Source: Escherichia coli (lineage in GTDB: Bacteria > Pseudomonadota > Gammaproteobacteria > Enterobacterales > Enterobacteriaceae). Taken from it: DNA of 64,000 nucleotides. The DNA is taken from assembly GCF_050920415.1 (NCBI RefSeq), contig NZ_CP169309.1. One strand, written 5' to 3'. Made by a program: the position numbers. Positions 27,001 to 30,000 of this stretch are shown one piece after another. Positions within the stretch are counted from its first letter, which is position 1, and each line of letters starts with the position of its first letter.

Positions 27001-30000
27001 GTACTGTGGTGTTCCATGACACCAGTGTTGATGAGTACTTTAAAATCGGCTCGACTATCAAAACAGACCGTGAGATTGAGCTGGATGGCGTAACGTATCC
27101 GTACGTGACAATTGATGTCTCTTCGAAATCGCACCCGTTCTATACAGGGAAGCTGAGAACAGTGGCATCAGAAGGAAATGTTACACGATTCACCCAACGT
27201 TTTGGTCGTTTTGTTAGCACGAAAAAGGGGGCGTGATGAAAGTCCTTAACTCTCTGCGTACCGCAAAAGAACGCCATCCAGACTGTCAGATTGTGAAGCG
27301 AAAAGGACGGCTGTATGTGATTTGTAAATCTAATCCACGTTTTAAGGCCGTTCAGGGGCGTAAGAAAAAGCGTTGATTCATAATTCGCCGAATTAACGAT
27401 ATTTGTCTGATTAATAATCAGACCGGATTAATGTTGGTGTGTTTATAACACCAACATTAATTTCCTGGGGATATATTCTTCCTGTTCATTTGAGGTCAAC
27501 TGCCTGACGTTTCTCTCCGAATATTCCATTATCTTAATGTTGACTTGTTGACCAACTTCGCCCCTGTATGCTGGTATCAACTCTCTTTTAGACTGAACAA
27601 GCCACTCCGCCCCCTCCCTTTGCGGAGCAGCCTGCATTTACACTCAAACTGTTAAGAAGATAAATGTGGTAAATCTGTTGGTACTAACATAAAAACGTTT
27701 ACGCCACAGGAACAGCCTGATCCACCGGTAACCCCATCGCCGACGTTCGAGTGCCAGTTAGAGTAACGCGCACAGATGACTGCACGCAGTGCCCTGTCAA
27801 AGAGGCCATCGTTCCTGTGACAGCTGGCAGCCTTCGTTTAACTTCACTTAATTTGGCTCTTGGGGGGCTTACCGAACAGATGACGTAGTCACACCTATTC
27901 AATTTATCACCACTTATTGGAGTAAACACCCATAACCATTTTGTGCGGCATGTTAATCCATTAAAACACCTTATTGATTGTCAAATCTTCTTTAATGATG
28001 GCCAATAATAGTTTTATGTTCTATTTATTATCATTAAAAATTGTTTTTTTACTAGTCGAGCACAAAACGCATTAAGACTATTCCTAACACCTCAGGGCAA
28101 AGTTCCTGGCTAATATAAAATGCAAGTAAGAATTGAACGTTATATTGCCAATAACCTTATGAAACTGAATGTCTTTTTCTTCTTATCAAAAAAGCAATAT
28201 TTTCATTTTTAGTAAATATTGACTTAACCATGGAATTCCTTTTCTGTTCACATATTGACACTCATCAGGAAAAAAACATAAATTTAAGCCCAATCGAAAA
28301 TAATTAAAACTTAATCTCGTTTAACCTATATTGATATGTGCTACGTATCTTATTTACTTCCGATTTACTAACAACACTGAATGTACCTGTAAAAATTACA
28401 GGTTTGGAAAGTAGTGACATGGCAAAATGATTACAGCAGGGACTATGAGGTTAAAAACCATATGGAATATCAAAACCGTTCTGATAAATACATCTGGTCT
28501 CCCCATGACGCCTACTTCTATAAAGGACTCTCTGAACTGATTGTGGATATCGACAGATTAATTTATCTATCGCTGGAGAAAATTAGAAAAGATTTCGTGT
28601 TTATCAATCTCAATACGGATTCTTTAACTGAGTTTATAAACCGTGATAACGAATGGTTATCCGCGGTAAAGGGGAAACAGGTCGTATTGATTGCGGCCAG
28701 AAAGTCAGAAGCCTTAGCAAATTATTGGTATTACAACAGCAATATTAGGGGCGTGATATACGCTGGGCTGAGTCGTGATATTAGAAACGAATTGGCCTAT
28801 GTGATTAATGGCAGGTTTCTCAAAAAAGATATTAAGAAAGATAAAATCACTGACCGGGAAATGGAAATTATCCGCATGACGGCCCAGGGAATGCTGCCTA
28901 AATCGATTGCCAGAATTGAAAATTGTAGTGTGAAGACAGTGTATACCCATCGGCGTAATGCTGAGGCCAAGCTGTACTCAAAAATATATAAGTTGGTTCC
29001 GTAAACTCCAGGCAAGTTAGTTTTAAAAAATGACTCACAGGGACATCATGTCCTCAATTTAACTCGGGAAGAAAAGCAATGAAAAAAAAGGTTCTGGCAA
29101 TAGCTCTGGTAACGGTGTTTACCGGCATGGGTGTGGCGCAGGCTGCTGACGTAACAGCTCAGGCTGTAGCGACCTGGTCGGCAACAGCCAAAAAAGACAC
29201 CACCAGTAAACTGGTTGTGACGCCACTCGGTAGCCTGGCGTTCCAGTATGCCGAAGGCATTAAAGGCTTTAACTCACAGAAAGGTCTATTTGACGTGGCT
29301 ATTGAGGGTGACTCAACGGCTACCGCCTTTAAACTGACCTCACGTCTTATCACCAACACCTTAACCCAGTTGGATACCTCAGGTTCCACACTGAATGTGG
29401 GCGTGGATTATAACGGCGCGGCAGTCGAAAAAACTGGCGATACCGTGATGATCGATACCGCCAACGGCGTACTGGGCGGCAACCTTAGCCCGCTGGCTAA
29501 CGATTACAATGCCAGCAATCGTACCACCGCACAGGATGGTTTCACCTTCTCCATCATCAGCGGTACCACCAATGGTACCACCGCAGTAACCGATTACAGC
29601 ACTCTACCGGAAGGCATCTGGAGCGGCGACGTTAGCGTACAGTTCGACGCGACCTGGACCAGTTGATCTCTTTGATGTACCAGCAGGGGTAACCCCCTGC
29701 TTTATTCCTGGACGGAATTGTTATGAAAAAGCACCTTCTGCCTCTCGCTCTGCTGTTTGCCGGAATATCTCCGGCCCAGGCGCTGGATGTCGGCGATATA
29801 TCATCGTTTATGAACAGTGACAGCAGCACGCTGAGCAAAACAATCAAAAACAGTACCGACAGTGGTCGCCTCATCAATATCCGTCTCGAACGGCTCTCTT
29901 CACCGCTTGACGACGGGCAGGTTATCGCAATGGACAAGCCGGATGAGTTGCTACTCACTCCCGCCAGCTTGCTGCTACCCGCCCAAGCCAGCGAAGTGAT

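Follow-up and report, generated by a model that had tools for sequence, protein, structure and literature searches.

The roughly 1 kb of DNA that separates ykgO from ecpR in this Escherichia coli strain is very probably a composite of two unrelated pieces, the regulatory region of the ecp operon and Escherichia-specific junction DNA. The right half (27931-28461) would supply the ecpRABCDE (mat) pilus operon with its leader and its cis-regulatory sequences, as a module that appears to move with the operon, its blocks and spacing being kept in Klebsiella and Enterobacter, and the left half (27377-27930) would be junction DNA particular to Escherichia. The anatomy, the conservation, the composition and the missing coding and structure signals were all computed in this analysis, in a window of 64 kb that is the whole stretch of DNA analysed.

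The preliminary description of this DNA, about 1 kb of AT-rich and non-coding sequence upstream of ecpR, was confirmed in part. Its length is right, as the ykgO stop lies at 27376 and about 1 kb follows before ecpR. Its AT-richness applies to 27931-28461, which is 70.1% AT versus 49.9% for the 64-kb window, and 27901-28400 ranks first as the most AT-rich 500 bp of the 64 kb. It does not apply to 27462-27930, since the ecpR-distal ~470 bp are of average composition at 53% AT (53.6% in 27462-27640 and 52.8% in 27641-27930, with a local GC of 51-54%), and the composition breaks at about 27900-27930. Homology to the Klebsiella and Enterobacter ecp loci runs from ~27931 through to ecpR, and none was found to the left of ~27931. 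Nor was the interval unannotated, as RefSeq places ykgL (27411-27637, minus strand, marked 'frameshifted') within it. Among E. coli records, 5072 matched the ecpR upstream region, most at 90-95% identity; in 4963 the match covered 80% or more of the query, and the gene order ykgM-ykgO-ykgL-ecpR-ecpA is syntenic with the E. coli ecpR upstream region that has been studied. The features of the right half are the following.

27885-28070, no strand: hypervariable segment of the distal ecp regulatory region, from allele comparison
27939-27948, plus strand: invariant TTTTGTGCGG, where the DNA common to the genera has its left boundary, from alignments
28048-28445, no strand: equivalent of promoter island 310529_398, with K-12 coordinates transferred via the K-12-like locus L002 and alignment
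28073-28086, plus strand: RcsAB-box-like TAAGACTATTCCTA, overlapping the TTCCT boxes, from a pattern search
28081-28085 and 28103-28107, plus strand: boxes of TTCCT-N17-TTCCT, at about -211 to -185, from a pattern search
28150-28177, plus strand: conserved block AATAACCTTATGAAA...AAT...TTTT of invariant alignment columns, between the putative activator boxes and the promoter
28255-28284, plus strand: ecp core promoter, with -35 TTGACA at 28255-28260, an 18-bp spacer and -10 TAAATT at 28279-28284
28292-28461, plus strand: ecpR 5' leader of ~170 nt, from the promoter position and a RIL-seq end
28462-29004, plus strand: ecpR as annotated by RefSeq, 180 aa when read from the conserved ATG

The core promoter was the top match of the promoter scan, with 10 of 12 positions matching. 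Its -35 and -10 hexamers are invariant from E. coli through Klebsiella and Enterobacter, and the spacer between them measures 18 bp here, 19 bp in K-12 and 17 bp in Klebsiella and Enterobacter. Promoter-like sites as a group do not exceed chance (3 seen versus 4.1 +/- 2.1 in shuffled sequences). The one hexamer that had been named, TTGACT at 27541-27546 on the plus strand, is not supported as a promoter: it has no usable -10 element at 16-18 bp, went unreported by the promoter scan and shows no conservation in L007, a divergent Escherichia locus.

The start site, the H-NS binding, the control by EcpR, IHF and RcsB and the Term-seq and RIL-seq ends were taken from the literature. The ecp promoter is reported to lie 121 bp before the codon at which ecpR starts, and counting 121-122 nt back from the GTG at 28414 leads to 28292-28293. 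A fragment from EPEC RIL-seq, 281803-281896 on the minus strand, covers the 5' end of the ecpR leader, and its own 5' end falls 7 nt past the -10 and 1 nt from the position 121 nt before the GTG. Together these favour a transcription start at about 28292, the RIL-seq 5' end not being a start-site assay. The alternative start at 28341, obtained if the 121 bp are counted from the ATG at 28462, is less likely; close to it the scan found a second, weaker promoter-like site (28304-28332, TTAAAA-17-TATATT).

The 'long AT-rich leader' of the earlier reading is an imprecise term: transcribed leader makes up just the last ~170 nt (28292-28461), and the remaining AT-rich sequence precedes the start site. 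The leader measures 167-172 nt in 11 loci. A conserved GAGG (28447-28450) and the AUG sit within a small hairpin (28441-28463) that is 97.5% paired across 10 sequences. The covariation test found no compensatory change in this hairpin among the 10 sequences; the sole leader pair with a two-sided change falls outside it, and the consensus fold of the leader across genera is weak (-4.2 kcal/mol). The ecpR leader has been recovered in chimeras with Spot 42 by Hfq RIL-seq in EPEC. Sequence alone did not corroborate these chimeras because both measures stood at chance level: the full-length duplex energy was no better than that of shuffled sequences (23% were equally good), and the longest perfect match of 7 nt was equalled in 49.5% of shuffles.

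Upstream of the promoter, the putative activator block is kept in Klebsiella and Enterobacter as TAAGAnTAnTCyTAACA ... TCCTGG. The two TTCCT boxes presumably form the EcpR site, as reportedly described by Martinez-Santos 2012, and, following Martinez-Santos 2012 and Pannen 2016, we take the RcsAB-like/TTCCT block as a whole to be the EcpR(MatA)/RcsB activator site. For this strain, the pairing of proteins with conserved blocks is our inference: 28073-28107 is assigned on that footing to EcpR(MatA) and RcsB, and the invariant block at 28150-28177 appears as a candidate architectural site of the IHF type. Matches to the IHF consensus with one mismatch occur near the latter block, at 27967-27979 and 28195-28207, both on the minus strand. 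Reviews cite activation of the mat operon by MatA-RcsB, and activation by EcpR, IHF and RcsB has been described for the E. coli ecp (mat) region.

The interpretation offered earlier, that long AT-rich DNA in front of a pilus regulator is a target of nucleoid-protein silencing and could hold a small RNA, was supported in part. The silencing half of it is correct as established knowledge and would apply to this strain too: the K-12 promoter island 310529_398 (ecpR/ykgL) is H-NS-bound 'according to all studies' by ChIP-chip (PMC3661553), and ecpA and ecpR are derepressed in an hns mutant of K. pneumoniae (PMC4746245). Repression of ecpR/matA by H-NS is also stated in work that cites Martinez-Santos 2012, Lehti 2013 and Pannen 2016. 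The high-affinity H-NS motif TCGATAAATT was absent from 27931-28461 when up to 2 mismatches were allowed, and so lends the silencing no further support. Together, these elements suggest a scheme in which a sigma-70 promoter with a near-consensus -35 and an over-long spacer (TTGACA-N18-TAAATT) would start transcription at ~28292, and the ~530 bp of 70%-AT DNA around it would be coated and silenced by H-NS. EcpR(MatA) and RcsB would activate at the RcsAB-like/TTCCT boxes ~185-220 bp upstream, and bending of the IHF type would aid the displacement of H-NS.

The right limit of the region also shifts. The limit of 28413 given earlier presumed a GTG start for ecpR that is not conserved: an extension from GTG 28414 runs into in-frame stops in locus L007, K. 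pneumoniae and K. oxytoca. Most full-length EcpR homologues have 179-180 aa, and K. pneumoniae KPN_00290 measures 543 nt. As a minor new point, the conserved ecpR start is, judging from these comparisons, ATG 28462 and not GTG 28414, and the non-coding stretch therefore probably extends to 28461.

The features of the left half are these.

27405-27423, no strand: tandem hairpin 1, GUCUGAUU-AAU-AAUCAGAC
27411-27637, minus strand: ykgL, an orphan ORF, frameshifted pseudogene here and 75 aa intact in K-12
27427-27461, no strand: tandem hairpin 2, with perfect 14-bp arms and a 7-nt loop, an inverted repeat of 100% complementarity
27638-27930, no strand: Escherichia-specific spacer of ~47% GC overall and 51-54% in its core
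27699-27929, minus strand: orphan ORF, counterpart of E2348C_0251, the only ORF of the spacer

The two hairpins after ykgO (27405-27461) gave folding z-scores of -5.07 on the plus strand and -6.35 on the minus strand, and none of 200 shuffles was as stable. The module has a T-run of just 3 nt on the plus strand and none on the minus strand, too short for the hairpins to be called by the terminator scan. In K-12, Term-seq places a 3' end at 312325(+), which corresponds to window position 27425 on the minus strand, 2-3 nt past the stem and 14 nt short of the stop codon of ykgL. We propose that 27405-27461 is a terminator-like or 3'-end-protecting module common to the convergent transcripts of ykgMO (plus) and the ykgL strand (minus), so that the two stable hairpins would end or protect both RNAs. 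Convergent excludons that appear in 50% or more of the RNA-seq samples have been listed for MG1655, and the pair ykgL-ykgO is one of them. Upon zinc chelation, 'ykgL' reads rise along with those of ykgMO, and this co-rise suggests read-through of the ykgMO plus-strand transcript past the hairpins. Beyond the hairpins would lie the decaying orphan ORF ykgL and then a spacer with no detectable coding or RNA-structure signal.

The earlier judgement that the interval has no convincing ORF held up, given the lack of a Pfam or NCBIfam match for any ORF of 30-77 aa in the interval, the lack of codon-position bias and the frameshifting indels in several lineages. It could nevertheless be argued that ykgL really encodes a small protein and happens to have been inactivated in this strain; the interval would then not be truly non-coding. 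PGAP names it 'protein YkgL', the 75-aa ORF is intact in K-12-type and many other strains, and in the divergent locus L007 its place is taken by an ORF of 77 aa, close to it in length. However, O157, E2348/69 and other strains carry the ORF in shortened or frameshifted form, and it is frameshifted in the window, where it has 64 aa versus 75 aa in K-12. Indels lie at 27463, 27476 and 27561, and the frameshifts of these lineages are independent. It also belongs to no family model, only 8 of 18 aa are similar between it and the L007 ORF, the codon-position test found no third-position excess of substitutions (p = 0.22 and 0.33), and the K-12 transcript of this strand stops short of the ykgL stop codon. 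The ORF thus shows none of the coding signals tested, and we regard the gene reading as very improbable. The spacer at 27638-27930 might instead be what erosion has left of a gene formerly situated between ykgMO and the ecp island. Its core GC resembles that of E. coli coding DNA and differs from the flanks, long stop-free frames run on both strands, and its identity of 94-97% among E. coli equals that of the neighbouring DNA. A protein database search with its 86-aa frame returned only E. coli hypothetical ORFs of varying length (47-126 aa), though; no significant match emerged when 27400-27960 was compared by tblastn, in six frames, with loci of Klebsiella and Pantoea, there is no Pfam or NCBIfam family, and substitutions show no 3-periodicity, whether against L007 or among E. 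coli alleles (p = 0.80 and 0.89). The searches run also turned up no full-length syntenic gene here in other Escherichia or Enterobacteriaceae species. A gene remnant is unlikely.

If the ykgL ORF does not behave as coding, any function would reside in the RNA, and the minus-strand 'ykgL' transcript could be a functional non-coding RNA that ends at the hairpin after ykgO. The Term-seq 3' end just beyond the hairpin, a Rho-dependent read-through region antisense to ykgO/ykgM in the K-12 Term-seq data and the inclusion of ykgL-ykgO in the excludon list all speak for this, but the Term-seq score on the ykgL strand is low, about 750-865 versus tens of thousands at strong neighbouring ends, and the promoter scan found no minus-strand promoter-like site upstream of ykgL. 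Along the transcript body the folding z-scores are ~0, Rfam gives no match, its sequence is poorly conserved even within Escherichia (L007 carries insertions of 40 nt and 10 nt), and Hfq RIL-seq in EPEC lists no interaction for ykgL, ykgO or the ykgL-side intergenic region. A functional RNA of this kind is quite unlikely. The roles proposed for it are those of an antisense or excludon partner interfering with ykgMO, or of a trans-acting sRNA.

The unannotated small RNA suggested earlier gained no support from Rfam, the terminator scan, folding or covariation. A covariance-model scan had been proposed as a check, and we ran one with Rfam 15 over 26400-29200 on both strands at permissive E-values. 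It gave no match at gathering score: four matches were returned, all far below gathering, the best being GcvB at 18.4 bits versus 42 (E = 0.45). The terminator scan of 27200-28600 found no terminator-like site, and the promoter-like matches all belong to the ecpR promoter region. When 12 sub-windows were folded on both strands, z-scores inside 27470-28475 ranged from -1.6 to +2.0, and only the ykgO-proximal hairpins stood out. The preliminary description had let its reading depend on transcript ends being mapped inside the interval. Such ends exist, a start at ~28292 and the K-12 3' end at 27425(-), and they belong to the ecpR mRNA and the ykgL-strand transcript, not to a demonstrated sRNA.

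In sum of its parts, the ecpR upstream region is the ordinary, already known ecp/mat regulatory region. It is orthologous to the E. coli ecp (mat) region of EHEC, EPEC, NMEC and K-12, being 92-94% identical to K-12, O157 and others, and agrees with it in the core promoter, in the TTCCT/RcsAB-like boxes and in where the start site lies relative to ecpR; it differs from the studied regions in the rare allele at 27885-28070 and in its spacer of 18 bp versus 19 bp in K-12. Studies on the ecp (mat) regulatory region reportedly include Martinez-Santos et al. 2012 (J Bacteriol 194:5020), Lehti et al. 2012 and 2013 and Pannen et al. 2016. The segment 28048-28445 resembles the promoter islands of K-12, which are AT-rich, dense in promoter-like signals and linked to horizontally acquired genes (Panyukov and Ozoline 2013, PMC3661553). 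Island status is conferred by the algorithm of PMC3661553 itself, whereas a simple consensus scan finds no excess of promoter-like sites over shuffles at the ecp locus. The Klebsiella and Enterobacter ecp regions have the same block order, TTTTGTGCGG, 316 bp to the -35 and a ~170-nt leader, within 750-900 bp of non-coding DNA whose final ~600 bp are 23-37% GC; unlike here, their upstream neighbour is a phosphonate ABC transporter and not ykgMO/ykgL, and their second box reads ATCCT instead of TTCCT. The hairpin between ykgO and ykgL is comparable to excludon or bidirectional terminator systems in that one perfect hairpin, stable on both strands, lies between the ykgMO and ykgL units, and it is unlike simple intrinsic terminators in being AT-rich with a T-run of only 3-4 nt.

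The ecp/mat pilus is a widespread colonisation factor whose control region for H-NS, EcpR, RcsB and IHF has already been dissected experimentally, so the significance of the present analysis beyond tidying the annotation is slight. What it adds is that the AT-rich regulatory module probably spans ~530 bp, not 1 kb, and moves between genera with the operon, that ecpR is best read from ATG 28462 as a 180-aa protein, that ykgL lacks the coding signals tested, and that a distal 10-mer, TTTTGTGCGG, is conserved at fixed spacing. This 10-mer lies 315-316 bp upstream of the -35 in 11/11 loci measured from three genera, and the DNA between the two is only 56-70% identical across genera. Seventeen records of Escherichia, Klebsiella and Enterobacter contain it, each exactly once, three of them being overlapping records of one strain, and 27939-27948 is its sole exact copy in the 64-kb window. 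Judged by eye, readings of the 10-mer as a CRP, PmrA, CpxR or sigma-54 site were rejected, as only half-sites fit. From its fixed position we tentatively raise the idea, on balance a doubtful one, of an undescribed distal operator or architectural anchor. If true, the anchor might serve, for example, as the end-point of a loop or bridge or as the boundary of an H-NS filament, and it would be required for silencing or anti-silencing of the common-pilus operon.

Across the hypervariable segment at 27885-28070, identity to five other E. coli alleles is 80.6-86.0%, versus 94-99% in the flanks, and the allele carried here is rare, with at least 90% identity in 15 of 4998 E. coli records. Because this allele is rare and 14-19% diverged from the common ones, regulation of the ecp operon could differ in degree here.

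The window is E. coli chromosome, and gene coordinates were taken from the RefSeq annotation of strain MFDS1022581, to which it aligns base for base with 100% identity over the query. As the preliminary description had claimed, ykgO and ecpR are separated by about 1 kb that holds no convincing gene.

Features around the interval (genes from RefSeq)
26507-26608, + strand, ykgR
26973-27236, + strand, ykgM
27236-27376, + strand, ykgO
27405-27423, hairpin 1, directly after ykgO
27411-27637, - strand, ykgL, marked 'frameshifted'
27427-27461, hairpin 2, directly after ykgO, with perfect 14-bp arms
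Right of the interval, + strand, ecpR (starting at ATG 28462), then ecpABCDE

This DNA had been called AT-rich, which holds for 27931-28461 (70.1% AT, compared with 49.9% for the whole window) but not for the rest (53.6% in 27462-27640 and 52.8% in 27641-27930), where local GC reaches 51-54% around 27600-27900. Within the 64 kb, no 500-bp stretch is richer in AT than 27901-28400. Overall, the interval is an already known regulatory region plus junction DNA, and the new or unexplained points at the locus are all minor; the earlier observation is partly confirmed and its interpretation partly supported.

We compared ecpR loci from K. oxytoca-group species, K. pneumoniae-type strains, Enterobacter, Pantoea and one divergent Escherichia. 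All of them have 750-900 bp of non-coding DNA before ecpR, the last ~600 bp of which are 23-37% GC. Their similarity to the window starts at ~27931 and continues to ecpR, and the upstream neighbour of ecp is a phosphonate ABC transporter in Klebsiella, in place of the ykgMO of the window. The AT-rich module is therefore part of the ecp operon rather than of its E. coli context. An Enterobacter mori record (CP071064.1, 213 kb) carries a complete ecpR-ecpC with the same AT-rich upstream module, and its ecp locus adjoins a transposase-like HTH gene, an arrangement that would fit an operon travelling together with its control region.

Conserved blocks of the module (A3 and A5 are multi-genus alignments of ecp upstream regions)
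27939-27948, TTTTGTGCGG (A3, A5)
28073-28089, TAAGACTATTCCTAACA, fitting the RcsAB-box pattern TAAGAnnnnTCnTA
28100-28109, AAGTTCCTGG (A3, A5)
28128-28134, TAAGAAT (A3, A5)
28150-28177, AATAACCTTATGAAA...TTTT (A3, A5)
28218-28223, ATTGAC (A3, A5)
28255-28284, core promoter TTGACA-N18-TAAATT, the best match of the promoter scan
28437-28466, GGACTATGAGGTT...ATATGGAA, beyond a poorly conserved stretch

The leftmost block, TTTTGTGCGG, is invariant and is present as a single copy in every record that contains it; there are 17 of these, from Escherichia, Klebsiella and Enterobacter, and three of them are overlapping records of one strain. Its distance to the -35 is 315-316 bp in all 11 loci measured, and the DNA between is only 56-70% identical. 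To our knowledge no regulator has this 10-mer as its site, and we can assign no known binding protein to it. TAAGACTATTCCTAACA and AAGTTCCTGG together form TTCCT-N17-TTCCT (28081-28107), and we take the TTCCT boxes to be the EcpR site. The RcsAB-box consensus applied here, TAAGAnnnnTCnTA, gave four strand matches at three sites in the window (5229-5242, 16849-16862 and 28073-28086) where 0.26 were expected; one of the sites is a perfect palindrome that counts twice, once per strand, and lies within the island inserted in rclA, and another overlaps the rclB start. Between the -35 and the -10, Klebsiella and Enterobacter have a spacer of 17 bp; the window, O157 and L007, a divergent Escherichia locus, have 18 bp; and a K-12-like strain, with one extra A in the A-run, has 19 bp. 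Among E. coli alleles the whole interval diverges by 4-7%. At 27885-28070 the window allele is rare: just 15 of the 4998 E. coli records reach 90% identity with it. It is 80-86% identical to the common alleles, with flanks at 94-99%.

The proposal that this region is silenced by nucleoid proteins was right, because its K-12 equivalent is an H-NS-bound island and H-NS repression is on record; this is textbook for the locus. Promoter island 310529_398 (ecpR/ykgL), corresponding to window ~28048-28445, was H-NS-bound in all ChIP-chip studies compared (PMC3661553). As summarised in reviews and later papers, H-NS represses ecpR/matA and is counteracted by EcpR and IHF, the mat operon is activated by a MatA-RcsB heterodimer, and induction follows low temperature, acidic pH or acetate. 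In a K. pneumoniae hns mutant, ecpA and pilus regulators were derepressed (PMC4746245).

Martinez-Santos 2012, as cited by PMC10038029, reportedly placed the ecp promoter 121 bp ahead of the start codon of ecpR. Counted back from GTG 28414, this gives 28292-28293, 8 nt past the -10. Independent support comes from Hfq RIL-seq in EPEC, where an intergenic fragment chimeric with Spot 42 spans 281803-281896(-). Its 5' end falls 7 nt past the TAAATT hexamer, within 1 nt of the position 121 bp from the GTG. Counting from ATG 28462 instead would place the start site at 28341, which has a weaker promoter-like site in front of it and is the less likely reading. For translation, the preliminary description had used GTG 28414, an extension of 16 codons that is interrupted by in-frame stops in L007, K. 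pneumoniae and K. oxytoca; RefSeq starts ecpR at ATG 28462, preceded by GAGG at 28447-28450. Full-length homologues in a protein search are mostly 179-180 aa, and KPN_00290 is 543 nt. From these comparisons, ATG 28462 (180 aa) is the conserved start and the GTG (196-aa form) is unconserved, which probably makes the non-coding region 48 nt longer than assumed.

Measured in 11 loci, the leader runs for 167-172 nt before it reaches the conserved ATG. Its hairpin 28441-28463 would pair the Shine-Dalgarno sequence and AUG of ecpR (CUAUGAGGUUAAAAACCAUAUGG), is kept in 10/10 sequences across genera, and has a predicted stability of -6.2 kcal/mol at 37 C and -9.8 at 20 C. The 10 sequences contain no compensatory change, only invariant positions or one-sided changes, so they are compatible with the structure and do not demonstrate it. 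In EPEC, the ecpR leader and coding region are targets of Spot 42 and RprA; from sequence alone, Spot 42 complementarity within the leader does not exceed the chance level.

The suggested small RNA gene found no support in any test. A covariance-model scan gave no Rfam match near the gathering score, the interval scan no terminator-like site, the interval sub-windows no unusual fold, and the leader hairpin tested no covariation; the leader consensus fold is weak. The TTGACT offered as a promoter hexamer lies at 27541-27546, has no acceptable -10 at 16-18 bp downstream, is absent from the promoter-scan output and is unconserved in L007. Promoter-like sites in 27200-28600 are not in excess (3 compared with 4.1 +/- 2.1 in shuffled sequence).

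The left half (27377-27930) has no counterpart outside Escherichia among the loci compared. Better-than-chance folding was found only at the ykgO-proximal hairpins (z = -5.07 on the + strand and -6.35 on the - strand). K-12 Term-seq (Adams et al. 2021, supplement) places a 3' end on the ykgL strand at 312325, which transfers through the K-12-like locus L002 to window 27425, 2-3 nt beyond the stem and 14 nt ahead of the ykgL stop codon. The same supplement lists a Rho-dependent region antisense to ykgO/ykgM. The ykgL-ykgO pair is catalogued as a convergent excludon in MG1655, and 'ykgL' reads increase along with ykgMO under zinc chelation. The minus-strand 3' end at the hairpin is weak. A functional minus-strand RNA at ykgL seems unlikely to us. 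The joint rise of 'ykgL' and ykgMO reads, with a post-hairpin T-run of only 3-4 nt, suggests read-through from the Zur-controlled ykgMO transcript.

The ykgL ORF does not behave like a gene. Indels shift its frame in several strains, among them O157 and E2348/69, and in the window lineage. It has no family match in Pfam or NCBIfam, and no enrichment of substitutions at third codon positions; in L007 this stretch is lengthened by insertions of 40 nt and 10 nt, and the ORF at that position has just 8 of 18 residues in common. Block 27638-27930, of ordinary composition, has long stop-free frames on both strands and no further sign of function. Its 86-aa frame, annotated as E2348C_0251 in E2348/69, matched only E. 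coli hypothetical ORFs (47-126 aa) in a protein search, tblastn against the Klebsiella and Pantoea loci returned nothing significant, its substitutions lack 3-periodicity, and its folding is unremarkable.

Several other features of the window were recorded. Directly upstream of ykgM, the palindrome GTTATGTTATAACATAAC (26944-26961) resembles a Zur box, in keeping with the zinc regulation of the ykgMO operon. The stem CCTCTCCC...GGGAGAGG (26654-26702) lies ~50-90 nt downstream of ykgR; at its K-12 equivalent, Term-seq records an 'orphan' 3' end at 313047 that is very strong (score about 48,000) and may mark either where the ykgR mRNA ends or an RNA so far unannotated. Far from this ykgR, at 45854-45922, lies another, truncated fragment of the gene. 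The rclA gene is interrupted by a ~12-kb island (4140-16472) that resembles a phage satellite or P4-like element in its gene content (integrase, primase, Icd-like, capsid, head-decoration, head-tail connector and PerC-family regulator genes). An IS2 copy at 19178-20405, its transposase frameshifted, breaks an HTH/GyrI-like gene, and the antiviral reverse transcriptase gene drt3b begins near 49114.
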